Assembly (NCBI GenBank): GCA_011192155.1 | Contig: DUEK01000002.1 | Coordinates: forward strand, 12,388-76,387 | Direction of reading: 5' to 3' | DNA length: 64,000 nt | DNA from: Thermoflexia bacterium | GTDB lineage: Bacteria > Chloroflexota > Anaerolineae > B4-G1 | Part shown: positions 16,275 through 53,460 of the stretch, piece after piece | Position numbering within the stretch: the first letter of the stretch is position 1 | How the letters are laid out: each line of letters starts with the position of its first letter | Notes under the pieces: generated by a model | Told to the model about the DNA's origin: nothing | Databases searched by the model: none | What the model saw: only the letters and a program-made list of their open reading frames with translations | Translations under genes and position numbers: made by a program

Positions 16275-18878
16275 ATGTTGTCGTCAAATTCGCAGGAGCG
16301 GCCTCGGATTCCAACCACTGGGATGCGCGGAGGGCTGGGCAGAACTCTACTGACCGCCTTCCTGGTCCTGGCGATTATACCCCTTAGCGCTATCAGTTGG
16401 TATGCTACCCTCCGCGAGCGGCAAGATATTCAACGTGAAGTGACTGCCAAACTATCGGCCGTGGCCGCGCTGATGGGGACGCAACTTTGCTGGTGTACTG
16501 AGCGCTGTACTGCCGATCTGGCGCTTGCGGCGGCTTCACCCGCTATCCAGGAGAATGTAGACGTCCTGCTCACCGACCCAGTTGACACCGACCCCGCCCG
16601 TGATGCATTGCGCCTCCAATTACAGACCATGCTCTCGCAAGCCTCACTCTTTCAGCGCTTGGCCGTGCTTGATAGCGAGGGCAATGTGCTGGTTTCCACT
16701 GACCCACAGGTCGAGAACACTCAGCTCGAACCTCAACTTGATTCAACCGCTCCATTCTCATCAGAGGGAAGCGAAGCGACCGATGGCGGGGCGCTGATGC
16801 TTATTCAGGCTATCACTGGCCAGGATGACGAGACGCTTGGCCTGTTGGCTGGTTGGCTCAACCTCGGCGATCTCGTCGCCGATCTGCAGGCGGCTAGCGA
16901 TCTGGGAGAGATGGGCAAAATTTACCTCGTGGATGCCAACGGAGTGGTGCTGCCTTTCTCCCAGCAAAGGGAAGCAACGCGGCTTCAGGGGCAAGAAGCG
17001 ATTGGTCAGGGTATTGAATTTGCTCACGCCGGCGAGAACCGAGAAGGACACTCGTCCTGGACAACGAGTACAGGGCTTTACGAAAACTATGCCGGTGACT
17101 CTGTCATCGGGGTCTATCATTGGGTGCCGGAATTGAATCTGGCGCTGGTGGCGGAGCAGGCTCAAGAGGATGCCTTTGCCCCGACCGAGAACGTCGCGGC
17201 AGCCGTCGTCGGCGCCACGCTGGTGGTGGCGCTGGTCACTGCCGTGATCGCTGCGGTCGTGACGCGGCAAATCACGCAGCCAATCGTGCGTTTGACCGAG
17301 TCGGCGCTTAACATCGCAGAAGGGGACATGGAGCAGCGTGTTCCCGTCAAGTCGAGGGATGAAATTGGCATACTGGCCTATGTATTCAACCACATGACGG
17401 CCGAGTTGAAAACTCTTTACGATGACCTGGAAAATAAGGTCGTACGACGCACAGCCCTTCTACAGCAGGCTAACTACCAGATACAGCGACGAGCCATCCA
17501 ACTTGCTACCACCGTTGAGGTCAGCCAGGCGTCCACCCTGATTCTGGAGCCAGGCCAGCTATTGCGCGAAGTGGTGCAATTGATACATAGTAGCTTTTTT
17601 GCCTATTCCTTCGTTGGTATCTACCTTTTGGATGATACGGGCAAGCGGGCGTTGCTCAGAGAAGGCAAGGGCGGCAAAGAGGAAGTGATGGCCGCCAAGT
17701 CGGAGCCGGTGCGTGTGGATGTCGCGTTGCTGCACTTGGATGGTATTGGTAACGGGAGCGCGGTTAGTCAGGCTGCCTTGACGGGAGATCCGCACATTGT
17801 CCGCTGGGACGCTGAGCGCGCGCAGAAAACGTTTTCCTCTCCCTACATCCGCGCAGAGGCGGCGCTGCCGCTCAGGATGGGGGAACAGATCATCGGCGTG
17901 CTCAACATTCTAAGCACCGAGGAGGACGACTTTGACGCGGACGACGTCTCTGTCCTTCAAAACGTGGCAAACCAAATTGCTATTGCTCTGGAGAACGCCC
18001 GCGCCTACGCCGTGGAGCGGGAAGCAGCTGATCGCTTGCGAGAACTGGATCGCTCCAAGCGTCGTTTCTTGGCCAACATGTCCCACGAACTACGCACCCC
18101 CCTCACCAACATCCTCGGCTTCTCGCGGTTGATGTTGAAGGAGATTGACGCGTCTGCCTCAATCAAGGGAAAGCGCCGTGTTGCTTCCGCCGGTTCGCTC
18201 ATGGAGCAAAACCGGAACGACCTGGAGATCATTTACAACAATGGTCAACACTTGCTGGGCCTGATCAACGACTTGTTGGATGTCTCTCAGATCGAAGCCG
18301 GTTTGATGGAACTAGAGTTCCGTGCTGTGGATGTGGCTGACTTGATCAATAGCGTGATGGCTACCACCAGCGCGCTAGTGCGCGATAAGGATATCGAGTT
18401 GCATCAAGAGATTGCGCCTAACCTGCCTACAGTGCAAGCCGACCAAGCGCGCGTTCGACAAGTGTTACTGTTACTCTTGACTAATGCGGCCAAGTTTACG
18501 CTGGAGGGAAGTATCACTGTACGGGCGTGGTCCGACGATGGCGAGGTTTTAGTAAGCATCAGCGATACCGGTGTGGGCATCTTGCCCGAGGACCGGGAGC
18601 GTATCTTTGAGCAATTTGAACAGGGTACCATCCTGATTGAAGGGAAGCGGAGTGTTTCCCTGTTGAATGGTCGCCACCCGAACGGCGCTGGCTTGGGGCT
18701 GGCCTTGAGCAAGGAGTTTGTAGAAATGCACGGCGGGCGTATCTGGGTGGAGAGCGAGGTGGGGCAGGGCTCTACTTTTACATTCACATTGCCTCTGAAA
18801 CCCGAGTCGGCGGATGACAAATATGTCAGCTCGGCAAAAGCCGGAATCGGAATGGTGAAAAGGAAGGAAGAAGTATGA
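16275..18878 (+). CDS. Sensor histidine kinase (periplasmic domain, HAMP, coiled coil, GAF, HisKA, HATPase_c), the kinase-bearing founder of the HAMP-GAF family
   Basis: TM / periplasmic domain of about 280 aa / TM. HAMP 'ITQPIVRLTESALNIAEGDMEQRVPVKSRDEIGILAYVFNHMTAEL'. GAF 'FVGIYLLDDTGKRALLREGKGG...AALPLRMGEQIIGVLNILS'. H-box 'MSHELRTPLTNILGFS'. 'GAGLGLALSKEFVEMHGG'. Carries four copies or relics of the 30-nt repeat core. Confidence 0.9.
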   Translation: MLSSNSQERPRIPTTGMRGGLGRTLLTAFLVLAIIPLSAISWYATLRERQDIQREVTAKLSAVAALMGTQLCWCTERCTADLALAAASPAIQENVDVLLTDPVDTDPARDALRLQLQTMLSQASLFQRLAVLDSEGNVLVSTDPQVENTQLEPQLDSTAPFSSEGSEATDGGALMLIQAITGQDDETLGLLAGWLNLGDLVADLQAASDLGEMGKIYLVDANGVVLPFSQQREATRLQGQEAIGQGIEFAHAGENREGHSSWTTSTGLYENYAGDSVIGVYHWVPELNLALVAEQAQEDAFAPTENVAAAVVGATLVVALVTAVIAAVVTRQITQPIVRLTESALNIAEGDMEQRVPVKSRDEIGILAYVFNHMTAELKTLYDDLENKVVRRTALLQQANYQIQRRAIQLATTVEVSQASTLILEPGQLLREVVQLIHSSFFAYSFVGIYLLDDTGKRALLREGKGGKEEVMAAKSEPVRVDVALLHLDGIGNGSAVSQAALTGDPHIVRWDAERAQKTFSSPYIRAEAALPLRMGEQIIGVLNILSTEEDDFDADDVSVLQNVANQIAIALENARAYAVEREAADRLRELDRSKRRFLANMSHELRTPLTNILGFSRLMLKEIDASASIKGKRRVASAGSLMEQNRNDLEIIYNNGQHLLGLINDLLDVSQIEAGLMELEFRAVDVADLINSVMATTSALVRDKDIELHQEIAPNLPTVQADQARVRQVLLLLLTNAAKFTLEGSITVRAWSDDGEVLVSISDTGVGILPEDRERIFEQFEQGTILIEGKRSVSLLNGRHPNGAGLGLALSKEFVEMHGGRIWVESEVGQGSTFTFTLPLKPESADDKYVSSAKAGIGMVKRKEEV
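16761..16780 (+). repeat. 30-nt-family repeat core, single copy (read as SEGSEAT)
   Basis: TCAGAGGGAAGCGAAGCGAC, one mismatch to the core TCAAAGGGAAGCGAAGCGAC. Confidence 0.6.
16965..16982 (+). repeat. 30-nt-family repeat core, single copy (read as QREATR)
   Basis: CAAAGGGAAGCAACGCGG. Same variant as 45464-45481. Confidence 0.6.
18161..18180 (+). repeat. 30-nt-family repeat relic (read as IKGKRR) in the DHp region of the kinase
   Basis: AATCAAGGGAAAGCGCCGTG. Peptide 'SIKGKRRV' compares with 'PIKGKRRG' at 22456-22520. Lies within a segment about 12 aa longer than the corresponding stretch of the 38411 kinase. Confidence 0.45.
18637..18650 (+). repeat. 30-nt-family repeat relic (read as IEGKRS) in the HATPase_c domain
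   Basis: TTGAAGGGAAGCGG inside 'FEQGTILIEGKRSVSLLNGRHPNGAGLGL', a stretch that is much shorter in the other kinases of this window. Confidence 0.4.
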
Positions 18879-20590: not shown

Positions 20591-22383
20591 TTGGAGTGAC
20601 AGGTGAAATGGACATGCAATCTGTACCTGATTGGGAAAGCGAAATCGAGGACCGCCGCACCACGTTTCTGAATAGTTTACTGTTGGTTGCAGCGGTTGGC
20701 GGTCTAGTGGCGATAGTCCTAACCTACGTCACACTGCCAAAGGATATGACTGTACTGGAACGATGGATTGAGGTAATTCCTTTCCTTGCCGGCTGGTTGA
20801 TCGTGTTGATTATTTGGGCATGGCGCGGTTTGGGTTACAGCACCCGCGCGTTGATTGTACTTCTGATCGTCTATGGCTTGAGTGTCTTCATCTTTCGCCG
20901 AGGGGGACTGCCTGGCAGCGGGCGTGTCTGGCTGTTACTGCTGCCAGCCCTGGCCTTTATCCTGGCAGGCGCACGCCTCGGCATCGCAGCCGGAGCCATC
21001 GGTATCTTGACCTACTCCATCTTTGCCCTTGCTTTTAGTCAAAAGTGGCTGGTTCCTCTAGTATCAGAGGATCAGGTTGCGCTGACGACGTGGTTCAGTG
21101 AGGGAGGCTCCTTCCTGCTTATAACGGCCAGCTTGACGCTAATCTTGTGGTCGTACGGACGGGGTTGGCTGGGGGCACTGGCGAGGATGAGTGCGACCAG
21201 CCAGCAGTTGCAAGTCCAGGCGCAGGAATTGAAGGCGGCAAACGAACAGTTGCGATTGCAGACTTCCCGGTTGCGGACGACAGCCGAGATTGCTCGTGCT
21301 GGCTCCTCTATTTTGGATCCAGAGGCGTTGTGCGCCGAGGTGGTTGACCGAGTCCAGGAAGAATTCGAGTCTATAGGTGTATATTACGTGGGCCTGTTTC
21401 TGCTCAGCGAGATTAGTAGGGACACGGGTGAGCAGTTTGCCGTGCTAAAAGCCGCCACTGGCGAGGCTGGAAAGCTGTTGTTAGAGATGAATCACGAGCT
21501 GGCGCTGGATGACACGACCTTGATCGGGCAGTGCATCGTTCGTCGGGATGCCCGTGTTATATCAAGTATGGAAGAGGATACGGCGCGCTTTGACGCTGTT
21601 CCCATGTCGTACACGCGCTCGGAAGCTGCCCTCCCGCTGCATTCCCGTGGGCGCATCCTGGGCGCGTTGAGCGTGCAAAGTGCGCGGGAAGCATCTTTCG
21701 ATGAGACTGACGTCGCTGTCCTGCAGACCATGGCCGATCAAGTAGCGGTGGCGATTGACAACGCCAGACTCTTCAGCCAGGCTGAGACTGCCCTGGAAGA
21801 TGTTCGGGCCGCTCACCGCCGTTACTTGACCAAGTCTTGGGAAGAATTCCTGGCTGCGGGACTGGTCACTCGGGTGGATTACGCTCAGCCAGGGGCAGAG
21901 TTGGGAGATAGCGAGTTCTTGCGCGATGCGCAGCGTGCTGCAATGGTGCACGAGAGGGCAGTGGTCTTGGATGGCCCACCCCGCACAAAGGGAAGCGAGG
22001 GAGCAGGGAAGCAGGATGAGTATAGGGAAGCGCAGACGGCGCTCGTGGTCCCTTTGAAATTACGAGAGCAAATCATAGGCACAATGACCTTGCACGAAAC
22101 GCGCCGTCAGCGACCGTGGGATGCTGGAGAAATCGCCATGTCGGAAACCATCGCCGAGCAGGTTGCGTTGAGCGTCGAGAACCTGCGCCTGATGGACGAG
22201 GTCCAGCGCCGCGCCGCCCGCGAGCGGCTGGTGGGCGAGATTTCGGATCAGATGCAGCGCGCCACGGATATGGGATCTTTGCTACGCATCACGGCGGAAG
22301 AGTTAAACCGCGTTCTGGGCGGCTCGCGCGCCTACGTGCGCCTGGGCGTGGCGGCAGGGTTAGCCGGCGAGACGGAGCACTAG
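20587..22383 (+). CDS. 6TM-coiled-coil-GAF-GAF receptor-like protein without an output domain (paralogue 2)
   Basis: ATGA overlap. Six hydrophobic helices. GAF1 'VYYVGLFLL...FAVLKAATGEAG...TRSEAALPLHSRGRILGALSVQS'. Tail 'QRRAARERLVGEISDQMQRATDMGSLLRITAEELNRVLGGSRAYVRL'. Confidence 0.85.
   Translation: MIGVTGEMDMQSVPDWESEIEDRRTTFLNSLLLVAAVGGLVAIVLTYVTLPKDMTVLERWIEVIPFLAGWLIVLIIWAWRGLGYSTRALIVLLIVYGLSVFIFRRGGLPGSGRVWLLLLPALAFILAGARLGIAAGAIGILTYSIFALAFSQKWLVPLVSEDQVALTTWFSEGGSFLLITASLTLILWSYGRGWLGALARMSATSQQLQVQAQELKAANEQLRLQTSRLRTTAEIARAGSSILDPEALCAEVVDRVQEEFESIGVYYVGLFLLSEISRDTGEQFAVLKAATGEAGKLLLEMNHELALDDTTLIGQCIVRRDARVISSMEEDTARFDAVPMSYTRSEAALPLHSRGRILGALSVQSAREASFDETDVAVLQTMADQVAVAIDNARLFSQAETALEDVRAAHRRYLTKSWEEFLAAGLVTRVDYAQPGAELGDSEFLRDAQRAAMVHERAVVLDGPPRTKGSEGAGKQDEYREAQTALVVPLKLREQIIGTMTLHETRRQRPWDAGEIAMSETIAEQVALSVENLRLMDEVQRRAARERLVGEISDQMQRATDMGSLLRITAEELNRVLGGSRAYVRLGVAAGLAGETEH
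21985..22000 (+). repeat. 30-nt-family repeat core relic (read as TKGSEG)
   Basis: ACAAAGGGAAGCGAGG within the inter-GAF linker of paralogue 2. Confidence 0.45.
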
Positions 22384-22419
22384 ATCGTCAAAGCTGGATT
22401 GTGGGAAGGGAAGAAAGAT

Positions 22420-24384
22420 ATGAGCGAGTCAGCAAAAAAGCCAGGTTTCGCTACACGCGGCCCCGCCCCGATCAAAGGGAAGCGACGCGGCCCCGCCCCG
22501 ATCAAAGGGAAGCGACGCGGCGTAAGCGTTCGGCTCTTGCTTATGGGAAGTTCGTTTGTCATCATATTTCTGCTCTTGGCGGGTACTGTCCTCAACTATA
22601 TCTTTGTCTTTCGTTTGGCCCAGGCATCGAAGGCGGTGGGTGAGGAGATGGAGCGAGCCAACGCAGCGCTGGAGGTGGGCCGGGCGACGTCTGATTTATT
22701 CCTGGTTCTGGCGCAAGAGGCGTCGAGCCAGGATGCTGTTGACTTTGCCCAGTCTGTGAGAAAAGCCGAGCAGTCATTGATCGAGGTGGAGAAACGGTTG
22801 ACAGAAAGCGCTGCTTCTTTGCCGGTGGACGATCCGGTGCGGATCAACCTCGACAGGCTCGCGACCCGCACCGCCGATATACATACCCTCATAGACCGCG
22901 TAATTGTGCGAGTGGACGCAGGGGAGTGGTGGTATGTCGAGCAGCTCGTGCGAATCATAGTTTACCGTCATCGTATCTCTGTGATCGAATTGGTAGAACA
23001 GATGGGGAACTCAACTTCCGAGCGCCGCCGCGATGCTGAATCTGATGTCGATGCTGCCCGCCTCATGTTGCAGGTGGTTCCTATAGTGGTAGGGTTGTTG
23101 GTCGTCGGTGTGGTTGTGGGTACCGCCTTTGTCACCCATCGCAGTATTTCCAAGCCGGTGGAACGGTTGACCGACGCGGCCACTCGCTTGGCCTCTGGGC
23201 GACTGGAGGAGCGAGTCCCCATTGAGCGGATAGACGAGTTCCGGCGCTTGGCAGTCGCTTTCAACGAGATGACTGACCAACTGGAGGCTTCTTATACACA
23301 ACTGGAGCAACGCGTGGCCGAGCGCACGCGTGGCTTGCAGGCGGCGGCCGCGGTCGGGCGTGCCACTACCTCAATGCTTGACCCAGATCAACTACTGCGT
23401 CGCGTGGTGAACCTGGCCCGCGAGCGGTTCGATCTCTATTACGTAGGGCTGTTCCTTCTCGAAAGCGACTCTGGCCGCACGTTTGCCGTGCTTCGGGCTG
23501 GCACGGGTGAGGCCGGGCGGCAGATGATGGCGCAGGGGCACAGACTGGAAGTTGGCGGCGATTCGATGATTGGTCAGTGCACCTCTATGAACGAGGCGCG
23601 CGTTGCTTTGGACGTGGGCGAAGAAGCTGTGCGTTTCGATAACCCCCTCTTGCCGCAGACCCGTTCCGAACTGGCCCTGCCGCTCGTGGCGCGAGGCCGC
23701 GTCATCGGCGCGATGACCGTGCAGAGCGTGAAAGAGTCCGCTTTCGACGAAGAGTACATCGCCGTGTTGCAGACCATGGCTGACCAAGTGGCGGTGGCCA
23801 TTAACAACGCACACCTCTTTGCCGAGGCCCGGGCCGCACTGGAGGAGATGGCGGCTACTCAACGGCGCTATCTGGGCCAGGCGTGGGCCGAATACACGCA
23901 GACCGCAGAAGAGATTGCCTACGAGACCATGCGTCCGGGCGACGCCCCATTGGGTGACGCTATCCTGCCCGAGATTCAGCAAGTGGTGGAGCGGCGGAGT
24001 ACAGTAGCGTTGCAGAACGCCTCTCACACTTTGGCGCCTTTACATTCCGCTCTGATTTCGCCTATTGCTCTGCGCGGCGAGATTATTGGCGCGCTGGGCG
24101 TCCACGCCGATAAAGAGGATCGGCAGTGGAGCGACGATGACGTTGCCATCATTGAGGCCGTCGTCGAGCGTATGGCTCTGGCTGCCGAGAACATCCGTTT
24201 GCTGGAGGATACCCAGCGCCGCGCTGTCCGCGAGCGGCTGACGAGCGAGGTGACGGCCCGTATGCGCGAGACGCTGGACGTAGACACAGTGCTGCAAACG
24301 GCCATCCGCGAGATTGGAGAGGTACTGGATATTGCCAGGATTAAGGTGCGGATGGGAACTGGGAAGCCACCGATGCCTGAGTAG
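22420..24384 (+). CDS. 4-helix-bundle-like sensor / HAMP / GAF / GAF-like receptor protein without an output domain (paralogue 3)
   Basis: ATG at 22420 (M8 of the track ORF) follows GGGAAGGGAAGAAAG. TM / about 190-aa helical periplasmic domain / TM. HAMP 'ISKPVERLTDAATRLASGRLEERVPIERIDEFRRLAVAFNEMTDQL'. GAF1 'FDLYYVGLFLLE'. Tail 'QRRAVRERLTSEVTARMRETLDVDTVLQTAIREI...RIKVRM'. Confidence 0.85.
   Translation: MSESAKKPGFATRGPAPIKGKRRGPAPIKGKRRGVSVRLLLMGSSFVIIFLLLAGTVLNYIFVFRLAQASKAVGEEMERANAALEVGRATSDLFLVLAQEASSQDAVDFAQSVRKAEQSLIEVEKRLTESAASLPVDDPVRINLDRLATRTADIHTLIDRVIVRVDAGEWWYVEQLVRIIVYRHRISVIELVEQMGNSTSERRRDAESDVDAARLMLQVVPIVVGLLVVGVVVGTAFVTHRSISKPVERLTDAATRLASGRLEERVPIERIDEFRRLAVAFNEMTDQLEASYTQLEQRVAERTRGLQAAAAVGRATTSMLDPDQLLRRVVNLARERFDLYYVGLFLLESDSGRTFAVLRAGTGEAGRQMMAQGHRLEVGGDSMIGQCTSMNEARVALDVGEEAVRFDNPLLPQTRSELALPLVARGRVIGAMTVQSVKESAFDEEYIAVLQTMADQVAVAINNAHLFAEARAALEEMAATQRRYLGQAWAEYTQTAEEIAYETMRPGDAPLGDAILPEIQQVVERRSTVALQNASHTLAPLHSALISPIALRGEIIGALGVHADKEDRQWSDDDVAIIEAVVERMALAAENIRLLEDTQRRAVRERLTSEVTARMRETLDVDTVLQTAIREIGEVLDIARIKVRMGTGKPPMPE
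22456..22520 (+). repeat. 30-nt tandem repeat, about 2.2 copies (read as GPAPIKGKRR)
   Basis: CGCGGCCCCGCCCCGATCAAAGGGAAGCGA at 22456-22485 and 22486-22515, plus a partial copy. Encodes the cytoplasmic N-terminal tail of paralogue 3. Confidence 0.9.
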
Positions 24385-24435
24385 GCGCTGGTGATCTAAC
24401 TACAGAGCTGGATTGTGGAAAGGGAAAGAAGAAAG

Positions 24436-26484
24436 ATGAGCAAATCGTCAGGGCCAATTTCCGCTGTGTCCGTCACCGCGCGCCGCATAAGCATTCGCGC
24501 CTTACTTGTGAGTACCCTGCTCACCGTTCTGGTCTTGCTTTTGCTGATCACTGTTCTCAACTACACGTTTGCAGCCCGCTTGACTCGGGCCTTGTCAGTG
24601 ATGGAGGAAGAGACGGCACGGGCTAGCATAGCGCTAGAGGTGAATAAGGAGGCGGCCAATGTGCTTGCGGCTTTGGCGCAAGGAGTAGTGACCAATGACG
24701 CCGCTTACTTTACCCAGATTGTGAAAGAAGCCGGCCAAGCATTGAGCGATGCGGAGGGACGCTTGGTAGAGAGCGCTGACGCGTTGCCGCCGGATGACCC
24801 GCTGCGAATCAAGCTCTATGGGCTTGCAACCAGCTCTGGCGATATATATCGCCTGACGATCCTCTTGCCCCGGCGGGCAGAGGAGGGAAAGTGGTGGGAG
24901 ATCGAACAGTTTGAGCGGTCGTTGATTCCCTACTATGGACGTTTGGTGACCGAGTCGGCAGACCAGGTGAGAGCGGCGACGGTTGAGCGGCGGGCTATTG
25001 CTGTGGCAGAAGTAGGAGATATTCGCTACAAGATGCAGGTGACCCCTGTGGCGGCAGGACTGTTGATTCTAGTCGTGGCGGCGAGCGCTGTCTTTATCAC
25101 CATCCGCAGCATCGCCCGCCCGGTAGAGCGACTGACTGATACAGTTGCCCGCCTGGCCGCCGGGCGACTGGAGGAACGGGTCAGTGTTGGGGGGGCGGCC
25201 GAGTTTGGCCATTTAGCCACCGCCTTCAACGAGATGGCTGACCAACTGGAGATCTCTTATACCCAATTGGAGCATCGCGTGGCCGAGCGTTCCCGCGCCC
25301 TGGAGCGTCGCGCGGCTTACCTGGAGGCTGCGGCCGAGGTGAGCCGCGCCGCCGCCTCAATATTGGAGACCGATCGGTTGATGCAGCGGGCGGTCGAGTT
25401 GATTCGTGAGCGGTTCGATATGCACTATGTGGGCCTGTTCCTGGTGGACGAGGGGAACGAGTGGGCCGTATTACGGGCTGGTAGCGGCGAGGCCGGACGG
25501 GCTATGCTGGCTCGCGGGCACCGTCTCAAGGTTGGAGAGGGTATGATTGGTTGGAGCATCGCCAACGCTGAGGCCCGCATTGCCTCGAAAGCAGAGACAG
25601 ACACCGTGCGCCTGGTCATACCCGAATTGGCGGCCACGCGTTCCGAGGCGGCCTTGCCCCTGCGCTCGCGTGGCCGGGTGCTGGGCGCGTTGAGCGTACA
25701 GGATGACCAACCTGATGCTTTTGATCAGGATGCCATCACCGCGTTGCAGACGATGACCGATCAGATAGCGGTGGCCCTGGATAACGCGCAGCTCCTGGTC
25801 GCCAGCCAGACGGCCCTGGAAGCGGAGCGCCGCGCCTATGGCGAAGCTAGCCGTCAAGCCTGGGTCGAGTTATTGCGCGCCCGCACCGATTGGGGCTATG
25901 ACTATGAGCACAAATCCGTCACGCCGGCCTATGGCGACTGGGACCCCGAGATGCAGCGGGTTGTTCAGCAAGGTGCAAGTGTGCAGGAAGCCGCTTCGCT
26001 GTCCTTGGATCGGGAGGGGAATGGTGATGGAGAACACACCCTATTCATCCCGCTCAAAGTACGTGACCAGGTGATAGGCGCGCTAAGCTTTTGCAAAGGC
26101 GCGGCCGGCGCAGACCCCACACGATCAAGGGGAAGCGACACAGATCCCGGCCAAACCATCAAACCGTGGACAGCGGACGAGGTCGCTTTGCTGGAAACAC
26201 TGACCGAGCAACTGGGTGTGGCCCTGGAAAGCGCCCGGCTCTACCAGGATACCCAGCGCCGCGCTGCCCGCGAGCGGCTGACCAGTGAGGTCACGGCTCG
26301 CATGCGCGAGACGCTGGATATGGATACTGTGCTCAGAACCGCGACGGACGAAATATATCGAGCATTGGGCCTGGAAAAGATCATCGTTCGCCTGGCGACG
26401 GGAGAGGCGAATGACGAGTCGGCGCTTGGAGATACTACGACCACTGCCCAGAGAGGGCGAACTCTGCAGGAGGAGGTGGTATGA
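24436..26484 (+). CDS. 4-helix-bundle-like sensor / HAMP / GAF / GAF-like receptor protein without an output domain (paralogue 4; tandem duplicate of paralogue 3)
   Basis: ATG at 24436 is preceded by the same leader GCTGGATTGTGG(A/G)AAGGGAA as paralogue 3. HAMP 'IARPVERLTDTVARLAAGRLEERVSVGGAAEFGHLATAFNEMADQL'. GAF1 'FDMHYVGLFLVDEGNEWAVLRAGSGEAG'. Tail 'QRRAARERLTSEVTARMRETLDMDTVLRTATDEI...KIIVRL'. Confidence 0.85.
   Translation: MSKSSGPISAVSVTARRISIRALLVSTLLTVLVLLLLITVLNYTFAARLTRALSVMEEETARASIALEVNKEAANVLAALAQGVVTNDAAYFTQIVKEAGQALSDAEGRLVESADALPPDDPLRIKLYGLATSSGDIYRLTILLPRRAEEGKWWEIEQFERSLIPYYGRLVTESADQVRAATVERRAIAVAEVGDIRYKMQVTPVAAGLLILVVAASAVFITIRSIARPVERLTDTVARLAAGRLEERVSVGGAAEFGHLATAFNEMADQLEISYTQLEHRVAERSRALERRAAYLEAAAEVSRAAASILETDRLMQRAVELIRERFDMHYVGLFLVDEGNEWAVLRAGSGEAGRAMLARGHRLKVGEGMIGWSIANAEARIASKAETDTVRLVIPELAATRSEAALPLRSRGRVLGALSVQDDQPDAFDQDAITALQTMTDQIAVALDNAQLLVASQTALEAERRAYGEASRQAWVELLRARTDWGYDYEHKSVTPAYGDWDPEMQRVVQQGASVQEAASLSLDREGNGDGEHTLFIPLKVRDQVIGALSFCKGAAGADPTRSRGSDTDPGQTIKPWTADEVALLETLTEQLGVALESARLYQDTQRRAARERLTSEVTARMRETLDMDTVLRTATDEIYRALGLEKIIVRLATGEANDESALGDTTTTAQRGRTLQEEVV
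25990..26018 (-). repeat. 30-nt-family repeat, degenerate single copy in antisense orientation (read as ASLSLDREG)
   Basis: GCCGCTTCGCTGTCCTTGGATCGGGAGGG compares with GACGCTTCGCTTCCCTTTGATCGTGAGGG at 34891-35010. Same linker position as in paralogue 8. Confidence 0.5.
26123..26140 (+). repeat. 30-nt-family repeat core, single copy (read as SRGSD)
   Basis: GATCAAGGGGAAGCGACA within a loop of the second GAF-like module of paralogue 4. Confidence 0.55.
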
Positions 26485-30859: not shown

Positions 30860-30898
30860 TCGGCCTATGTATTGCGTATTACTCTCAAGGCGGGAATA

Positions 30899-44400: not shown

Positions 44401-45463
44401 CATTTCTGTGGCCGATAGCGGTATTGGTATCCCGCCGGATAAGATTGACATGATCTTTGAGCCTTTCACCCAAGCTGATTCTTCCACTACTCGCGAGGCC
44501 GGAGGCACAGGATTGGGCCTTTCTATCACCAGTAGCTTTGTCAAGATGCACGGTGGTCGTATGTGGGTGGAGAGTGAGGCGGGAGAGGGTTCCACTTTCT
44601 ACATGACGTTGCCCATCCATGGAGCTTCTCTGTCCGAGGAAGAGGCGGGGAAGGAGCAACTGGAGCCGGAGCCTGAACTTGAACAAAAAACTGTTCTTTG
44701 TGTAGAGGACGACGACGGGGTTGTCACCCTCTTTCGCCGCTACTTGAACAATCAAGGCTACAACGTCGTTGGCCTCACCGACAGCACGGTGGCGGTGGAA
44801 CGGGCACGAGAGCTACAGCCGTTTGCCATCACGCTGGATGTGATGATGCCCGGCAAGGATGGCTGGCAGGTCATTCAAGAGTTGAAGGCCGATCCCGAAA
44901 CCTGTGACATTCCTGTTATCATGTGTACTATTGTGGGGGAGAAGGAGTATGGCATCAGTTTGGGCGCGGTCGATTACTTGCTCAAGCCAATTCTCGAACA
45001 TGACCTGCTGGCTGCGCTGGGTCGCCTGGACTGGGCGGGGGGCCAACACCTGGTGTTGGTGGTGGACGACCAGCCGGAGGATCGAAACCTGCTGCGCCGG
45101 ATGCTCGAGGGCCAAGAGGGGTACGAGGTTGTGGAGGCGGGCGGTGGCCAGGAGGCCATCGCCGCGATCCAACAAACACCGCCCCACGTTATCATCCTGG
45201 ATCTTATGATGCCGAACGTGGATGGGTTCGCCGTTTTGGAGGCGGTTAAAACGGACGAGAATACTCGCTCTATTCCTATCATTGTTGTAACTGCCAAGGA
45301 CCTGACCACAGAAGAGCGAGAGGCCCTCAGTAGTGGAGTGGAGGCATTGCTGCAAAAGGGGATCTTTGAGCAGCACGAGCTACTGGCAGACGTGGCAGAG
45401 GCGCTGAACCGATTAGGAGACAACGCAGGAGGTGAATCAAGATATGAAGCAGACCCCACATAA
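38411..45463 (+). CDS. Giant hybrid sensor histidine kinase (2 PAS, about 9 GAF, HisKA, HATPase_c, 2 REC), 2350 aa
   Basis: PAS1 carries 'CHNYICPAEKGRCP'. PAS2 'YRVILDSIEEAYYEVDLAGNFTFFNDA'. Serial GAFs, two of receptor-paralogue type ('FGFYHAGVFMV', 'FGYYHAGVFLLDEQDEYAVLQAASSEGG'). H-box 'MSHELRTPLNSIIGFS'. 'GGTGLGLSITSSFVKMHGG'. REC 'VLCVEDDDG...TLDVMMPGKDG' and 'VLVVDDQPED...ILDLMMPNVDG'. Confidence 0.9.
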   Translation: MAKASDKRKTSAQLIEELQEPAEMPCESVERLKVLLESVPSGIVVIDAETHEIVAANPATIEMLGAPLEQVIGSVCHNYICPAEKGRCPITDLGQMVDKAERVLLTPDGERVPILKTVASVMLNGREHLIESFVDITEHKQTERALRKSEEKYRVILDSIEEAYYEVDLAGNFTFFNDALCAMLGYTRDELMGANYRQYTGDENTERVYQTFNTVYRTKEPAALFDWEIIRKDGTNKLVEASVSLMTDPVGDEPLGFRGIVRDVTERARSEVIRARTEAEIVKLNSELTTLNRIGQALISALNMEETLTIITERVSHLMGVAAASVVLHDEAQGDLYFAAASGEGADFVLSARFGLGQGIAGWVVQHGEAAIVPDVSQDERFFDDLDKRSGLTTRSILCVPLQAKGQVIGAIEVMNKKAGDFDQEDLRFLTSLAAPAATAIENARLFEQSQAFAQDLAVLNELSQALTARLSVEEVLEEAYRQIARLVDTTNFYIGLYDQEKDEVAISFMVSKSEIDRQITVIPAAHGFTGYIIRNRTSVLVKENVAEWLEEKGIEMVGDPACSWLGVPLLVGDQVLGVMAVQSYTTPCLYGEHDLDLLMAIAGPMAIAIQNARLYEQAQHEIGERKQAEAEVRRRAEQAALTYEVGQRVSGELGLGELLAEIVTVVRDAFDYYGVMLLLEEETGRLTPDQGEAKRLTLQSIAGGYADVFPSDLEIAVGEGMIGHAAASGKSQISNDVSQNPYYARKAEEETKSELAVPIRSGRKLIGVLDLQSDELDAFDETDVMLMETLADQIGAAIGNARLYEEAQRRLREQTMLFDVSQRLADTPLQVDEIAKVAARQFTEVMEAAECSLSLLDPQGDALQTLADFVTKDGIILQNDEQEEESFALSDYPATARVMETRQPLVVQASDPGADPDELAYMRQHEIATLAIVPLVAKGQAVGVIEIVMWEEHHYTAEWLNLAMTLANQIAGALENARLYEEIQRELTERKRMEEVLQETHEELEKYTTILERQTARLRVGAEVAREVSAILDVHQLLDETVRLISDEFGFYHAGVFMVGDLGEYAILRASSSEGGRRMLERGYRVPVDARPEPPDASGIVGYVAATGEYRIALDVGENVATLPSDRRGAVSFNNPDLPDTRSEICLPLRMHGRTIGVLDIQSAQEAAFSESDMAGFQTLADQLAVSIENARLVERTEDQLSEMGRLYGEYSAAAWADLLSPERPRGYIYDRVDVLPVMDSPSPTLDLAPARGESETTGSMLTMPLKLRGQTIGVLGVQESDGVREWSPEEVAIVEAVSDQVAIALDSARLFGEARTHAAEMVVLNELAQSLTARLTVEEVLEETYRGVSRLMDTTNFYIGLYNPELDSVSFPLAFEHGQAANWRPRRLSSGLTEHIIRSRQPLLVREGVSERMEELGIEMIGAPALSWLGAPLLVGDRVLGVMAIQSTTTPRAYGKHEQDLLTAVASQTAIALQSANLFHETQRRATQLAAAAEVARDATAILEVDQLLDETVHLISEQFGYYHAGVFLLDEQDEYAVLQAASSEGGRRMLERGHRLKVGKVGIVGYAAATGEPRVALDVGQDEVHFAHDDLPDTHSEMGLPLKVREQVIGVLDVQSEQVAAFSEDDVSALQTMADQLATAIANARLFQETRSEAQRRALINEMLQAASTSLNPEELLHQAGEVISQRLESPSAIFTWDAAEEILCTVAVHDSKAADVPLPEAFREMTRVINPALFEAVGKRRTSILEVTSSDQEEATRFAGVSGPLVATAKRNQAQSVIYVPLVSRDQVLGVLGIGRLEDQPLVNVEFIELLAANLSVAVENARLYQGAVQTAERLTEVDRLKSQFLANMSHELRTPLNSIIGFSRVILKEIDGPLTDMQRTDLQAVYNSGQHLLGLINDILEVAKIDSGKMELVSEVVNLQDIIKGVMSTAIALVKDKSGVKLQQVVPQDLPTIMGDTRRIRQAILNLVSNAAKFTTEGFIRVEVEVADNEVVISVADSGIGIPPDKIDMIFEPFTQADSSTTREAGGTGLGLSITSSFVKMHGGRMWVESEAGEGSTFYMTLPIHGASLSEEEAGKEQLEPEPELEQKTVLCVEDDDGVVTLFRRYLNNQGYNVVGLTDSTVAVERARELQPFAITLDVMMPGKDGWQVIQELKADPETCDIPVIMCTIVGEKEYGISLGAVDYLLKPILEHDLLAALGRLDWAGGQHLVLVVDDQPEDRNLLRRMLEGQEGYEVVEAGGGQEAIAAIQQTPPHVIILDLMMPNVDGFAVLEAVKTDENTRSIPIIVVTAKDLTTEEREALSSGVEALLQKGIFEQHELLADVAEALNRLGDNAGGESRYEADPT
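40478..40500 (+). repeat. 30-nt-family repeat, single copy (read as DQGEAKRL) inside a GAF of the giant kinase
   Basis: GATCAAGGGGAAGCGAAACGACT. A 10-aa insert 'TPDQGEAKRL' lies between 'EETGRL' and 'TLQSIAGG', flanked by GACTCAC / GACTGAC. Confidence 0.6.
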
Positions 45464-47141
45464 TCAAAGGGAAGCAACGCGACATAAATTCGAGCACCAG
45501 GTTTGGTTAGAGTGTGCGGGCTGTGGACATCGCGTCTTGTTTACCCACCCACTGAAAGCGTGTGAGAAGTGTGGTGGGCAATGGCTCGACGCGAGTTATG
45601 ACTATGACAGCGTCCGCGAGCAGTGGCCTGCTGTGTTGAGTGAGCGACCCTTTGACATGTGGCGCTACAGGGAGCTTCTTCCCCTGCGCGACGACACCAA
45701 TAAAGTGACCATGGGTGAGGGAGGAACGCCGCTGCTCCACGCCACCAACTTGGGGCTGATGCTCGGCGCTCCGCACATCTACTTCAAGGACGAGCGGCAA
45801 GGGCCGACCGGTTCATTCAAAGACCGGCAGGCGGCGTTGGCCATCTCGGTGATGAAAGAGCACGACATGACCGAGGCAGTTGTTGCCTCTACCGGCAATG
45901 TCGCCATCTCCTACTCAGCCTACTCTGCGCTGGCCGGTATCAAGATGTGGACCTTTCTCACCAGCCTGGTGCCCCCTGAGAAAATGCGCGAGGTAGCGCT
46001 CTATGGGAGCGAGGTCATCAAAGTGACTGCCTCTTATGATCAGACCAAGAAAGTGGCGGCGGATTTTGCGGAGCGTAAGGGCATTTTTCTCGACCGAGGG
46101 ATTCGGAGTATAGCGGCCCGCGAGGCTATGAAAACCGTCGCTTTCGAGATGGCCGAGCAATTGCCCATGTTGATTGGCGACGGCGATACCCTCTGGCGCG
46201 CGCCCGATTGGTACATCCAGGCCACCAGTGGGGGGATGGGGCCGGTGGGCGTGTGGAAAGCTTACGAGGAGATGGTGAGACTGGGGCTGGTGGACAAGAT
46301 GCCCAAGCTGGCCTGCATCCAGGTCGCCGGCTGCGCGCCGATGGTTCACTCCTTCAACAAGGGCCTGGACGAGGCCGAGCCGGTCCTCAACCCGCAGACC
46401 TTGGTCATCACCATCGCCACCGGCAGCCCTGGCCCGGCCTACACTTTTCTGTCTCGCGTCATTCGAGAGCACGGGGGAGCCTTTGAGGCCGTGACTGACG
46501 AAGAGGTCTTTCGCGCTATGCACGTGATGGCCAAGTTGGACGGCGTCTCGATGGAGACGGCGGCCGCGACGGCCTTTGCTGGGTTGTTCAAGTTGCTCAA
46601 TAAGGGTATAATAAAGCGTGATGAGGTCGTGGTCGTCAATTGCTCCGGACATACCTTCCCGGTCGAAAAGCACTTGCTGGGCGATGAGTGGGCGCGAACG
46701 GTTGATGTGCCCAAGAGAGAGGACGCTGTCGAGGAGGGATTGCTAGGCTCTCTGGAACAACTCGACGGTCGGGTGCAGAGCATTGTCATCATTGAGGATA
46801 ATCCCCAGGCCACGTTGTTGTTGCGGCGTATCTTGCAGACACGAGGGGAGTACCGGATATTTGAGGCTCACGACGGAATCGCAGGCTTGGAGTTGGTGCG
46901 CCGCGAGCGGCCCGATTTGATCTTGCTAGACCTGATGATGCCGGGTATGGATGGCTTTGAAGTGCTAGATGCGCTCAAGGCCGACGAAAACTTGAGCGAC
47001 GTGCCGGTGATTGTCATCACGGCCAAGGAGTTGACGATTGCCGAACGGCAGCGTCTCAGCGGGAGGATTGACAAGTTAATGCAAAAAGGCTCTTTTACTG
47101 ACGAGGAGTTGCTGACAGAAATCCTAAAGCGGGCGGCATGA
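45444..47141 (+). CDS. Threonine-synthase-family PLP enzyme fused to a C-terminal response-regulator receiver domain
   Basis: AGGAGG at 45427-45432, then ATG at 45444. N-terminal zinc ribbon 'CAGCGHRV...CEKCGG'. PLP-lysine motif 'GPTGSFKDRQA'. 'ASTGNVAIS'. 'ATSGGMGP'. C-terminal REC 'IVIIEDNPQA...LILLDLMMPGMDG...VIVITAKE...LMQKG'. Confidence 0.8.
   Translation: MKQTPHNQREATRHKFEHQVWLECAGCGHRVLFTHPLKACEKCGGQWLDASYDYDSVREQWPAVLSERPFDMWRYRELLPLRDDTNKVTMGEGGTPLLHATNLGLMLGAPHIYFKDERQGPTGSFKDRQAALAISVMKEHDMTEAVVASTGNVAISYSAYSALAGIKMWTFLTSLVPPEKMREVALYGSEVIKVTASYDQTKKVAADFAERKGIFLDRGIRSIAAREAMKTVAFEMAEQLPMLIGDGDTLWRAPDWYIQATSGGMGPVGVWKAYEEMVRLGLVDKMPKLACIQVAGCAPMVHSFNKGLDEAEPVLNPQTLVITIATGSPGPAYTFLSRVIREHGGAFEAVTDEEVFRAMHVMAKLDGVSMETAAATAFAGLFKLLNKGIIKRDEVVVVNCSGHTFPVEKHLLGDEWARTVDVPKREDAVEEGLLGSLEQLDGRVQSIVIIEDNPQATLLLRRILQTRGEYRIFEAHDGIAGLELVRRERPDLILLDLMMPGMDGFEVLDALKADENLSDVPVIVITAKELTIAERQRLSGRIDKLMQKGSFTDEELLTEILKRAA
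45462..45485 (+). repeat. 30-nt-family repeat core, single copy, spanning the giant-kinase stop and the ThrC-REC N-terminus (read as NQREATR)
   Basis: AATCAAAGGGAAGCAACGCGAC immediately overlaps or follows the TAA at 45461-45463. Confidence 0.6.
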
Positions 47142-49402: not shown

Positions 49403-49930
49403 ATGACTTTGAGACAAAAACTAATCATCGGCATAGTCTTGGCGCTGGCGGGATTGGCGCTGCGTCCGTTTGGCGCTGGTATCTTGTCCTTGTTCACACC
49501 TGCGCCTCGGGTTGATGTATCCACCGAGTTCGGCCAAACCGCCGGCCCGAAAAGGCCGGCCGAAGCACTCTCGCAGGAAACGTGCCGCTGGGCAGCTGCT
49601 CAAATGCTGGCCCAGGCCGGGCTGGGCGGAACTGCGACGCTGAATCCCGATGGCTTGCTTTGCCTCAATGTTACGTACATTCCCTTGCCAGACGAGACGT
49701 CCGACGCAGCCGCTCAACTGGTCTGGGGGGCCTTTGACGTTGCGCTGGCCTTGCAACAACGCAATTGTGAATTTACCCAGATCGAGGTTGTCATCCTGAC
49801 TCGATGCGATCAATCCGGCGCTCGAATTGAAGCGAGCGTCGGAGCAGCTGACCTAGCGGCCTTTGGCGCGGGCGAATTGAGTGAGGATGAGTTCATCGAG
49901 TGTGTGATGTATACTACTCTTTCTCAATGA
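49403..49930 (+). CDS. Hypothetical membrane-anchored protein
   Basis: ATG at 49403 (M27 of the track ORF) gives an N-terminal TM 'LIIGIVLALAGLALRPFGAGIL'. No recognisable domain. Confidence 0.4.
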   Translation: MTLRQKLIIGIVLALAGLALRPFGAGILSLFTPAPRVDVSTEFGQTAGPKRPAEALSQETCRWAAAQMLAQAGLGGTATLNPDGLLCLNVTYIPLPDETSDAAAQLVWGAFDVALALQQRNCEFTQIEVVILTRCDQSGARIEASVGAADLAAFGAGELSEDEFIECVMYTTLSQ

Positions 49931-51269: not shown

Positions 51270-53460
51270 TATGCCATATCCCCCGATGCTCGATCATCCA
51301 CGATTGAGAGTCTAGCTCAGGCTCACCGGGTTCGGGATGCACCCGCTCGTAGCTGCCATCGGGCAACAATCGCCGGGCCTGTACATTATCTCTCAGGTGA
51401 ATACCCAAAATCTGAGCGCGCACGGCGTCTCGCAAGCGCGCATCCTCCACCGGGAACAATTGTTCCACCCTCCGGTCGAGATTGCGGGGCATCAGGTCGG
51501 CGCTGCCGAGCAGCATCTCGTCCTCGCCTCCGTTGTGAAAGTAGTAGAGGCGGGGGTGTTCCAGGAAGCGGCCCACGATAGAGGTGACGGTGATATTCTC
51601 GCTCACCCTCGGCACGCCGGGCCGCAGGCAGCAGATGCCGCGCACTTGCAGATCAACCTTCACTCCGGCCTGCGAAGCACGGTAGAGCGCCTGGATGCAG
51701 GCCCTATCTACCAGCGCGTTCATCTTGAAAGCCAGGTAGCCGTCCCCGCGCTCTTGGTGCCGCTCGATTTCACGTTCGATGCGATTCAGTATTTCCTTCC
51801 GCATCACGCCTGGAGCCACCAACAGCTTGCGATACTCTTGCTTGGTGGAGTAGCCGGTGAGGGCATTGAACAGATCGGATACATCCGCGCCGATGTCTGG
51901 GTCACAAGTGAAAAAGCCAATGTCCGTGTAGAGGCGGGCGGTGACGTCATTATAGTTGCCGGTGCTCATGTGGACGTAGCGAGTGAGGGTGTCTCCCTCC
52001 CGCTCAAAGGGAAGCGAAGCGGCTCCTTCCCGGCGCACCACCAGGAGGAGCTTGGTGTGCGTCTTGAGTCCCATCACCCCATATACCACATGCACTCCTG
52101 CTTGCTCCAGCGCCCGCGCCCACACAATGTTGTTCTCTTCGTCAAAGCGCGCCTTTAGTTCGACCAACACGGCTACTTGTTTCCCATTCTTGCGCGCTTT
52201 CATCAGCGCGGCCACGATCGGCGAATCCGGGCCGACTCGGTACAACGTCTGCTTGATCGCCAGCACGTTGGGGTCTCGCGCCGCCCGGCGGACGAACTCT
52301 ACCACCGGGTCGAAGCTATCGTAGGGATGGTAGAGCAGGACGTTGCGATGGCGGATTGCGGAAAAGATGTTCTTCTCTGGGGATAGGGGCGGAGGCACAG
52401 ACTGCTGAAAAGGCGAGTCCTTCAGCTCGGGGCGGTTTACGCGAGCCAGATCCACGAGGTCGGCCAGTCCGATGGGGCCATCTACCGTGTAGACCTGATA
52501 GGGCGCCAGGCCAAGATTGGCGATCAGGGTATCGCGCACCCGTTCCGACATGTCGCCGTCTACCTCCAGCCGCACTGCTAAACCAAAATGGCGCATGCGC
52601 ACACTCTCTTGGATGGAAGTCAGCAAGTCTGCGGCTTCATCCTCCTCAATTTCAGGATCGGCATCGCGGGTGACGCGGAAAGGGTAAGCGGCCACGATCT
52701 CCATGCCAGGAAAGAGCATGTCCAGATTAGCGACCACTGCTTCTTCCAGCCACACAAAGTTGCTGGACATTGTTTGCGCCAGTCCCAGGCTTTGATAGTC
52801 GTCGGCTGTTTCTTCGCTGGGGATGCGCAGCAGGCGGGGGAATGTCCCCGGCGCCTTCAGGCGGGCGAACCGCTCCCCGCGCAGGGGATCGTTGATCACC
52901 ACCGCCAAGTTGAGGCTGAGGTTGGAGATGTGAGGAAATGGGTGCCCTGGATCAAAGGCCAGCGGCGTGAGGGTGGGGAATATCTCTTCTCGAAAGTACT
53001 GGCGCAACAGTTTGCACTGCTTGTGCTTCAGATCGCTATAGTTGAGAACTTTTATCCCGGCTTCTCGCAGTTTCGGCAACAGATCATAATGCCAGCAGTC
53101 GTACTGCCGGGATAGCTCCGGGAGCAACTCGCGACGGATGGCGGCCAGTTGCTCGGCCGGCGTCATACCATCCGGTGGGGCTTTCAATGCTCCAGCCGCC
53201 AATTGCCGGCGCAGGCCAGAGACGCGGATCATAAAGAACTCGTCCAGATTGCTGGCAAAGATGGACAGAAACTTGACCCGTTCCAACAGCGGGTGGCGCT
53301 TATCCAGCGCTTCCTCCAGCACTCGATGGTTGAACTGAAGCCAGCTTAACTCGCGATTGATGTAGAGGTGGGGGGCATCCAAACCAACATTGCTCTTGGA
53401 TGTCTCGAGTTGAGCAGAGCGCTTTACTTGTTTCTTCTTTTTCTTTTTCTTTTTTCCCAT
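51259..53460 (-). CDS. ppk: Polyphosphate kinase 1
   Basis: 'ELSWLQFNHRVLEEA', 'GLKTHTKLLLVVRRE', 'YVHMSTGNYN' and 'ARLYTD'. N-terminus 'MGKKKKKKKKQVKR'. Contains a 30-nt-family insert at 51993-52031. Confidence 0.9.
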   Translation of the reverse strand: MGKKKKKKKKQVKRSAQLETSKSNVGLDAPHLYINRELSWLQFNHRVLEEALDKRHPLLERVKFLSIFASNLDEFFMIRVSGLRRQLAAGALKAPPDGMTPAEQLAAIRRELLPELSRQYDCWHYDLLPKLREAGIKVLNYSDLKHKQCKLLRQYFREEIFPTLTPLAFDPGHPFPHISNLSLNLAVVINDPLRGERFARLKAPGTFPRLLRIPSEETADDYQSLGLAQTMSSNFVWLEEAVVANLDMLFPGMEIVAAYPFRVTRDADPEIEEDEAADLLTSIQESVRMRHFGLAVRLEVDGDMSERVRDTLIANLGLAPYQVYTVDGPIGLADLVDLARVNRPELKDSPFQQSVPPPLSPEKNIFSAIRHRNVLLYHPYDSFDPVVEFVRRAARDPNVLAIKQTLYRVGPDSPIVAALMKARKNGKQVAVLVELKARFDEENNIVWARALEQAGVHVVYGVMGLKTHTKLLLVVRREGAASLPFEREGDTLTRYVHMSTGNYNDVTARLYTDIGFFTCDPDIGADVSDLFNALTGYSTKQEYRKLLVAPGVMRKEILNRIEREIERHQERGDGYLAFKMNALVDRACIQALYRASQAGVKVDLQVRGICCLRPGVPRVSENITVTSIVGRFLEHPRLYYFHNGGEDEMLLGSADLMPRNLDRRVEQLFPVEDARLRDAVRAQILGIHLRDNVQARRLLPDGSYERVHPEPGEPELDSQSWMIEHRGIWHSEE
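51993..52031 (+). repeat. 30-nt-family repeat, single copy, antisense to ppk (read as AASLPFEREG)
   Basis: CTCCCTCCCGCTCAAAGGGAAGCGAAGCGG, followed by CTCCTTCCC, which repeats the 5' 9 nt. The unit matches the reverse complement of 34891-34920 at most positions. Confidence 0.8.

Follow-up and report, generated by a model that had tools for sequence, protein, structure and literature searches.

The 64,000-nucleotide (nt) stretch of DNA analysed here, referred to as the window, is from a Thermoflexia bacterium of the Anaerolineae (Chloroflexota; assembly GCA_011192155.1, contig DUEK01000002.1, positions 12,388 to 76,387 of the forward strand). The window harbors a family of 30-nt repeat units located inside protein-coding genes. 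The host genes encode a run of HAMP-GAF-GAF paralogues, a histidine kinase with Cache, HAMP, and GAF domains, a hybrid kinase of 2350 residues that has nine GAF domains, a PALP-receiver fusion, and polyphosphate kinase 1 (PPK1). The results presented here reveal that whole periods of 30 or 60 nt enter new sites, in unrelated genes or intergenic sequence, in either orientation and in any frame, and that arrays subsequently gain and lose units. An earlier note on this DNA had listed 15 loci with about 28 units. The listed loci are real, but the addition of 43667-43696 and 41768-41797 brings the total to 17, with about 30 units read in one antisense and three sense frames. The loci are as follows.

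16749..16778, + strand: single unit (GCTCCATTCTCATC + AGAGGGAAGCGAAGCG) in the dCache region of sensor kinase gene 16275-18878, read as SSEGSEAT
16952..16981, + strand: single unit in the dCache region of the same gene, in another frame (QQREATR)
18150..18191, + strand: degenerate unit, a 14-amino-acid insert (ASASIKGKRRVASA) in the HisKA/DHp region of gene 16275-18878
18625..18654, + strand: degenerate unit, a clean 10-amino-acid insert (TILIEGKRSV) in HATPase_c of gene 16275-18878
21973..22015, + strand: one unit plus 8-nt sub-repeats (AGGGAAGC), read as TKGSEG, in a loop of the second GAF-like domain of gene 20587-22383
22455..22521, + strand: 2.2-unit array (PAPIKGKRRG twice) at the N-terminus of gene 22399-24384
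25992..26021, - strand: degenerate antisense unit (AASLSLDREG) in gene 24415-26484, in the GAF-like loop also occupied at 21973 and 34889
26099..26150, + strand: degenerate block of about 1.7 units, a 17-amino-acid insert (GAAGADPTRSRGSDTDP) in gene 24415-26484
30671..30820, + strand: 5-unit array (DQREARRPLR five times) in the C-terminal tail of gene 28448-30859
31698..31787, + strand: 3-unit array (SKGSEATPAP three times) at the N-terminus of gene 31653-33509
34889..35017, - strand: 4.3 antisense units (ASLPFDREGD four times) in the second GAF-like domain of gene 33568-35415
37314..37435, + strand: 4.1 divergent units (GCCCCTTCCAATATGAGGGATAGCGAAGCG, PSNMRDSEAA) in multi-GAF gene 35859-38357
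40468..40497, + strand: single unit (TPDQGEAKRL) in the 2350-residue hybrid kinase gene 38411-45463
41768..41797, - strand: old degenerate antisense unit (NVATLPSDRR) in a GAF loop of the 2350-residue kinase
43667..43696, + strand: degenerate unit (GATCAGGAGGAAGCAACACGC, SSDQEEATRF) in the 2350-residue kinase gene 38411-45463
45453..45482, + strand: single 30-nt insert (ACCCCACATAATC + AAAGGGAAGCAACGCG + A) in the PALP-receiver gene, after codon 3
51993..52022, + strand: single 30-nt insert in PPK1 gene 51259-53460 (- strand), read antisense as REGAASLPFE

Anatomy and setting of the repeat unit

Within each 30-nt period, 16 nt form a purine-rich core, AAAGGGAAGCGAAGCG, and the other 14 nt form a CT-rich spacer (R-CTCCTTCC-NNNNN). 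The family consensus, CCTTCC-MRTRY-AAAGGGAAGCGAAGCG-RCT, was derived from 135 distinct units among the matches listed from metagenome contigs. The 20-mer core GATCAAAGGGAAGCGAAGCG has 19 matches in the window at no more than three mismatches, compared to 0.03 expected from dinucleotide-preserving shuffles, which is far above chance. Tandem Repeats Finder identified five arrays, each with the period of exactly 30 nt given previously, that start at 22455 (2.2 copies), 30679 (4.7), 31705 (2.9), 34889 (4.3, opposite orientation), and 37314 (4.1, divergent unit). The flank of the divergent array at 37314, CCTTCCAATA, equals the wider family consensus, which places this array in the same family.

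Translation of every locus in its host open reading frame (ORF) reproduced the three sense readings (IKGKRR, DQREARR, and SKGSEAT) and the antisense reading (ASLPFDREG) that had been described. An identical core in different frames and orientations upholds the proposal that conservation acts on the DNA and not on the peptide. The 20-mer was correctly described as stop-free in five of its six frames; the sixth contains a TGA (CGC TTC GCT TCC CTT TGA). All six frames of the family consensus are stop-free on direct reading.

The unit was said to be non-palindromic, and folding supports this. Single-strand folds of units and arrays gave z values of -2.3 to +1.4 versus shuffles, none of them significant, and the sole self-complement within the unit is 5-6 nt (GGGAAG/CTTCCC). 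Neither direct reading of the consensus nor folding revealed terminal inverted repeats at the unit ends. The window is without any match in Rfam at gathering thresholds. The core, on both strands, has no occurrence in the searchable literature, in which keyword searches yielded general reviews only. The earlier statement that no described family matches is borne out by both searches, and the 30-nt family is an unusually small gene-invading repeat that has apparently not been described previously.

Most of the host genes belong to a sensor cluster at 16275-47141, which is very large and has local duplication as its origin. It contains about ten tandem HAMP-GAF-GAF paralogues without a recognised output domain, and their neighbors are the 2350-residue hybrid kinase, the PALP-receiver fusion, and a receiver-kinase. 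No unit is present in two GAF/PAS kinases at 24-5274. A ParA/MinD-type ATPase gene (30872-31660; AAA_31, CbiA) is located inside the cluster; about 50 nt separate it from the end of the 5-unit array upstream, and the 3-unit array begins about 40 nt downstream. This arrangement could be a coincidence or could be centromere-like; units are also found in PPK1 and in unrelated enzymes, beyond the surroundings of the ParA-like gene. The window has two other short repeats. An unrelated tandem repeat at 10712-10804 with a period of 9/18/27 nt (TCTGGGCAC-like, about ten copies) is located at the N-terminal end of solute-binding protein gene 9992-10879 (- strand). Gene 26481-28451 contains, at 27521-27565, about 6.6 copies of a degenerate heptamer (GCGGGCG).

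Filled and empty sites

The units had been proposed to be clean 10-codon inserts in loops, linkers, and termini. Comparison with orthologues and paralogues that lack the peptides confirms this, with one old copy common to the window and a relative (L204). In PPK1, the ten residues in parentheses in VVR(REGAASLPFE)REGDTL are missing in 119 of 119 orthologues with 75-84% identity. The closest relative compared at the DNA level (L198, about 90% nucleotide identity over neighboring stretches) has an empty site that reads GCGCCGGGAAGGAG joined to ACAC, and the window reads CGGGAAGGAG-CCGCTTCGCTTCCCTTTGAG-CGGGAGGGAG. The empty site already holds CTCCTTCCCG, which equals the family consensus flank. 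PPK1 contains a GLKxH motif, the histidine of which is the catalytic histidine. In a phmmer alignment to the solved PPK1 structure 2o8r, the insert falls just after this motif in a stretch that is variable in length and sequence.

PPK1 is part of a polyphosphate module at 49914-57820 that encodes a CYTH-CHAD protein, adenylate kinase, two PPK2 proteins, PPK1, and a metallophosphoesterase/Ppx-HD protein. The CYTH/CHAD, adenylate kinase, two PPK2, PPK1, and metallophosphoesterase genes recur in relatives (L198, L199, L204, L205, and L206) with PPK1 identities of 76-84%, and their order is kept except for an inverted block in L206.

The PALP-receiver protein begins MKQNGFNHRVW in L204, a syntenic contig whose PPK1 is 80% identical, and MKQ(TPHNQREATR)HKFEHQVW in the window, a net gain of exactly 30 nt. 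The L204 orthologue, exactly 30 nt shorter at this point, establishes that the true start of the gene is ATG 45444 and that the unit at 45462 is coding. This start, also favored by a weak zinc-ribbon-like Pfam match, gives a 20-nt overlap with the end of the kinase gene upstream. The public gene call on the matching contig (494 amino acids; L200 11045-12529, window 45432-45657) begins too late; the L204 orthologue has 555 amino acids.

The 2350-residue kinase provides two further comparisons with L204. The unit at 43667-43696 is a 10-amino-acid insert that is missing in the L204 orthologue. The unit at 41768-41797 is common to both at the orthologous GAF loop, and the core is better preserved in L204 (cGATCAAAGGGAAGCATCGCG). 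As paralogous GAF domains lack these residues and are 10 residues shorter there, the shared copy is a sign of age and not of an ancestral feature of the protein. The insertion predates the split of the window and L204 lineages.

Paralogues within the window serve the same purpose for other loci. The weak copies reported at 18161 and 18637 are genuine, as gene 38411-45463, whose kinase core is 53% identical, lacks both the 14-amino-acid and the clean 10-amino-acid insert; the HisKA match in gene 16275-18878 extends over 83 residues against a 66-position model. The 22455 array is missing from aligned paralogues of gene 22399-24384, and the remaining inserts are missing from sister genes in paralogue alignments. 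One GAF-like loop is occupied in three paralogues (sense at 21973, antisense at 25992 and 34889), which argues for recurrent targeting of similar sequence. The host sites listed previously hold as given, but the dCache region (16749 and 16952) was missing from the list.

An FGGY sugar kinase in related contigs provides a strain-level pair. The kinases in a cluster with at least 90% identity fall into length classes of 534 residues (three members), 514 (three), and 515 (one). Identity to the representative is 96-98% for the 514-residue members and 95% for the 515-residue member. The length classes differ by one clean 20-residue block, a gain of 60 nt in the DNA, and these 20 residues are missing from 119 orthologues. 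Filled and empty genes are 98.6% identical downstream of the insert. The target site is CCCTGTCCC. The empty allele reads AAGAAAACCCTG joined to TCCCAGGCA, and the filled allele reads GAGAAAACTCTC, followed by the insert CAATCT-core-GCGCCTTCCAATCT-core-ACGCCCTC and then by TCCCAGACA.

Units with drifted cores (AAAGCGAAGCGAAGCG and GAAGGGAAGCGAAGCG) are found 3' of the FGGY kinase gene, before the next gene (a solute-binding protein, by gene calls in L207), in filled and empty alleles alike (L207 1713-1775 and 1994-2010; L191 3009-3056 and 3290-3307). Because units occupy this gap, the family is not confined to genes. The earlier claim that units always lie in ORFs is correct for the window, where the unit at 45462 needs ATG 45444, but not for the family.

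Arrays also differ in length between near-identical contigs, with 2 versus 3 units in L095/L123, 2 versus 1 in L124/L165, and 3 versus 2 in L114/L155. The existence of arrays and these differences in unit count agree with the tandem amplification that had been proposed. A 9-nt in-frame difference between the window and L188 is located inside the first unit of the 30679 array. Insertion activity spans from before a lineage split to strain-level time.

The family in related contigs

A scan of metagenome contigs with the pattern AAAGGGAAGC-N20-AAAGGGAAGC recovered at least 119 loci, and about half of those listed are GC-rich contigs with the 30-nt unit. At least about 57 GC-rich contigs carry the family among the matches listed. 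In the related loci among these matches, 98 of 114 arrays are in open frames of at least 150 residues and about eight are in frames of less than 100. All six frames are used, with antisense ASLPF and sense KGSEA the most common. The hosts include a subtilase, an S49 peptidase, glycosyltransferases, an alpha-amylase, a lytic transglycosylase, an HlyD-type protein, a trimethylamine methyltransferase, a metallo-beta-lactamase-fold protein, the FGGY sugar kinase, and PAS/GAF kinases. Excluding the array that recruited each contig, additional loci occur at about one per 13 kb, a rough and ascertainment-biased figure. The family is specific neither to the source genome nor to GAF proteins.

The cluster that contains the PPK1 of the window is labelled 'Chloroflexi/Chloroflexota bacterium', and one member is labelled 'Anaerolineaceae bacterium 4572_32.2'. 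These very small DNA-level insertion/expansion units form a lineage-wide family in Chloroflexota of the Anaerolineae type. In the divergence comparison, the other family-bearing contigs had no orthologues in common with the window. The window encodes a trimethylamine methyltransferase (MTTB) homologue at 12197-13630, and a homologue at L179 3339-4982 has a 3-unit array near its N-terminus. Viral contigs gave one match only, at chance level, and a phage origin was rejected. A scan of GTDB representative genomes with TCAAAGGGAAGCRAVGCG gave 78 single chance-level matches, but this pattern is too narrow for the family; most members have A/G-T-A/G-C/T before AAAGGG.

Two contigs, L115 and L188, are from the population of the window (99.6-99.9% identity), and both end inside an array (the 34889 array in L115). 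Array lengths and copy numbers from short-read assemblies are therefore uncertain, including those of the window. L110, L144, L182, and L185 likewise end within a 30-nt array. That many contigs stop inside arrays indicates that the family systematically breaks assemblies of these Anaerolineae populations.

Origin of the units and comparison to known systems

The junctions share several features. The net gain is a whole number of 30-nt periods (30 or 60), irrespective of the position of the junction or the length of the apparent duplication. The host sequence at junctions is CT-rich, like the CT-rich part of the unit itself. For example, the GAF-loop host flanks CAGGGAGAC, at the 34889 array, and CAGGAAGCC both resemble the unit end, which is GAGGGAGAC in the 34889 array. 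A typical array has n plus about 0.3-0.7 units, with a left flank that matches the 3' part of the spacer and a right flank that matches its first 7-10 bases. A flanking repeat of 9-10 nt is present in PPK1 and one of about 4-5 nt in FGGY; PALP has none. The spacer of the 26099..26150 block (GCAGACCCCACACGATC) is nearly identical to the spacer at 45446; since the 26107 and 45446 units share a spacer, the spacer travels with the core, and the PALP insert brought along a spacer that is nearly that of 26107. The FGGY insert, a recent one, has a donor-like internal spacer that resembles the consensus (GCGCCTTCC), whereas its partial spacer at the end combines unit (ACG) with host sequence (CCCTC). 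Insertion needs more than the CTCCYTCC motif, as about ten such sites in the window hold no unit. A simple model of a core plus a random target duplication was rejected: the spacer has a consensus of its own, and the flank statistics are ambiguous.

It is very probable that the units are a selfish or neutral DNA insertion family and that the encoded peptides are incidental. Copies persist in genes because one period equals ten codons and most frames are open. The commonly used frames appear to encode hydrophilic, loop-like peptides, and copies would be tolerated since the frame is kept. As to mechanism, we favor, at about even odds, homology-primed, templated copying of whole periods from existing copies, followed by slippage. 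In its favor are the gain of exactly 30 or 60 nt wherever the junction lies, the consensus flank already present at the PPK1 empty site, the spacers of the FGGY insert, the spacer common to 26107 and 45446, and the GAF loop occupied in three paralogues in both orientations. An existing copy or array would serve as the template for each new copy. At a CT-rich host site, a DNA end or nascent strand may pair by a few bases with the CT-rich spacer of the donor, or, at the PALP site, perhaps with the end of the donor core. Polymerase would then copy one or more whole periods and rejoin the host at the equivalent phase. Copying of whole periods with a return in phase would always give a gain of n x 30 nt together with short, imperfect flanking direct repeats. 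Copy number could later be altered by replication slippage or unequal exchange.

Several observations weigh against templated copy-in. It does not predict that 16 of the 17 loci in the window are clustered within 16275-47141 (binomial estimate, p ~7e-5). Passive copying alone does not obviously account for the constancy of the 16-nt core between lineages, which suggests that a dedicated sequence-specific enzyme may be involved. No enzyme, donor molecule, or intermediate was seen. Private spacer variants are equal to both flanks in L116 (GCCCATTC) and L143 (GCTCCATCCA), and spacers that match both flanks look like the outcome expected of a true target-site duplication followed by slippage. Flank duplication at single units is weak (own 4.45 versus cross 4.09 matches of 10, p ~0.05). 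Finally, four filled/empty pairs are resolved at the DNA level, two of them between fairly diverged sequences.

These points bear on the idea of a discrete non-autonomous mini-transposon, the main rival, which is possible but on balance unlikely. A trans-acting enzyme would move an element of about 20-22 nt (NNNNN + core + R) into CT-rich CTCCTTCC targets. In the same tentative scheme, 8-10 nt of target would be duplicated to give 30 nt in total, and slippage of the element together with the duplication would later form arrays. In PPK1, the 9-10 nt of the empty site (GAAGGAGAC / CGGGAAGGAG) are present on both sides of a 20-21-nt insert, as expected, and array-specific spacers are the same as both flanks in L087 and L098 as well as in L116 and L143. 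For arrays, identity to the own flank exceeds that to the cross flank (5.42 versus 4.44, permutation p<0.0002), and core conservation across lineages is expected under protein recognition. However, the apparent duplication ranges from 0 to 10 nt while the total stays at 30; the PALP insert lacks a duplication and has its own spacer, common to locus 26107; and the strain-level FGGY insert is two units with an internal spacer that is not target-like. The unit also lacks terminal inverted repeats and a hairpin. Domain annotation of the window genes revealed no transposase, reverse transcriptase, or HUH gene, although such an enzyme could lie elsewhere in the genome.

It is also conceivable, if rather doubtful, that a dedicated templated-insertion system, with a reverse transcriptase, primase-polymerase, or recombinase as candidates, writes a 30-nt periodic template into the chromosome. 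If true, the family would be the smallest self-propagating genetic element known in bacteria. The ten-codon length and open frames would be an adaptation to intragenic life, and the loops and linkers of sensors and enzymes would be constantly remodelled.

An improbable explanation is a functional DNA motif selected by the host, for example a recombination signal or an array to which a nucleoid, partition, or uptake protein binds, with the genic location incidental. The core is kept between lineages, and the ParA-like ATPase gene is flanked by arrays on both sides within about 50 nt. Motifs of this DNA-level kind that occur in coding sequence in several frames have precedents in DNA uptake sequences and parS sites. 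Yet the sites are not conserved, being missing in close relatives and in 98%-identical alleles, and unit number is unstable. The density is just one locus per 13 kb or so, copies arrive by insertion and not by substitution at the PPK1 and FGGY sites, and hosts and positions look arbitrary. The arrays have no polarity relative to GC skew (52 versus 41), which also eliminates a replication-oriented motif of the Chi or KOPS type.

Ordinary, locus-specific coding minisatellites (variable number tandem repeats) of only apparent relatedness share the multiple-of-three period, polymorphic copy number, and hydrophilic, linker-like peptides, but a locus-specific unit is refuted by one 16-20-nt core at 17 window loci in four frames and both orientations, by its presence in unrelated genes of at least about 57 contigs, and by clean single-unit inserts. 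Selection for linker peptides, an equally far-fetched origin, is excluded because it cannot yield identical DNA in different frames.

Selfish or neutral insertion invites comparison with known repeats. The small dispersed repeats (SDRs) of Nostocaceae, as Elhai and coworkers are said to have described in 2008, are 21-27 nt, apparently mobile as judged from filled and empty sites, and have a short target preference. Several SDR families reportedly have a stem-loop and are found mostly in non-coding repeat contexts. To our knowledge, SDRs encode no protein and no mobilising enzyme is known for them, and we know of no SDR description that includes a 10-codon period, tandem arrays, or routine residence in enzymes and sensor domains. 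Compared by description only, the 30-nt family behaves like SDRs in effect and is similar to them in size class and short-target preference, but it occurs in a different phylum and is probably unrelated in sequence. SDR5 is reported to insert at HIP1 sites (PMC5861425).

The 30-nt units also resemble MITEs (miniature inverted-repeat transposable elements), repetitive extragenic palindromes (REPs and REPINs), and mycobacterial interspersed repetitive units (MIRUs), which are short non-coding repeats that spread in genomes and in some cases are fused in frame to ORFs (PMC3184786, PMC3116915). MITEs have terminal inverted repeats, which the 30-nt unit lacks, and fixed target duplications. REPs are extragenic palindromes tied to RAYT transposases, whereas the units are mostly intragenic and non-palindromic and no Y1/HUH transposase is encoded in the window. 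MIRUs, at 40-100 bp, are intergenic, but are tandem with variable copy number (PMC3184786, PMC3116915), as in the 30-nt family. The earlier note likened the units to Rickettsia palindromic elements (Ogata and coworkers, 2000), which are about 100-150 bp and palindromic, form stable hairpins, and are not arranged in tandem arrays (reviewed in PMC3184786). The likeness holds for the functional effect only and not for size or palindromy. In both cases a dispersed repeat enters coding genes in frame, is translated as a tolerated extra peptide, and is also found in intergenic sequence; the units described here, in contrast, are 30 nt, have no significant fold, and grow in tandem with a 10-codon period.

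An array of the CRISPR type, with 23-50-nt repeats and unique spacers of similar length, is ruled out by 14-nt spacers that are near-identical within an array and by the absence of an Rfam match. DNA uptake sequences (USS/DUS) are conserved as DNA and occur in genes in several frames, with frame use biased to tolerated peptides. They occur at about one per kb, are gained by substitution, and do not form clean 10-codon inserts or tandem arrays. The 30-nt family is unlike them in its lower density and in its arrival by insertion. The G+C clusters and byp inserts of yeast mitochondria, attributed to Weiller and coworkers (1989) and Lang and coworkers (2014), are reportedly about 30-50 nt, located in coding sequence, sometimes tandem, and spread by copy-in or gene conversion. 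They are said to be organellar, GC-palindromic, often not a multiple of three, and bypassed or disruptive. The 30-nt units, unlike these, form ordinary in-frame sequence without stops in the frame of the host. The family is filed as a kind of small dispersed repeat, distinguished by its 10-codon period, lack of a palindrome, tandem growth, and residence in enzymes and sensor domains.

The units have consequences for annotation, in that at least one public gene call (PALP-receiver) begins downstream of a unit and short-read Anaerolineae assemblies are broken by arrays. The natural filled/empty pairs are material for working out how very short sequences get copied into new sites. If confirmed, the family would lower the size limit of gene-invading repeats, as a 30-nt non-palindromic unit that spreads through coding sequence in every frame, lasts from old shared copies down to strain-level polymorphisms, and grows in tandem. 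Its units readily supply sensor kinases and enzymes with loops and linkers of varied length.

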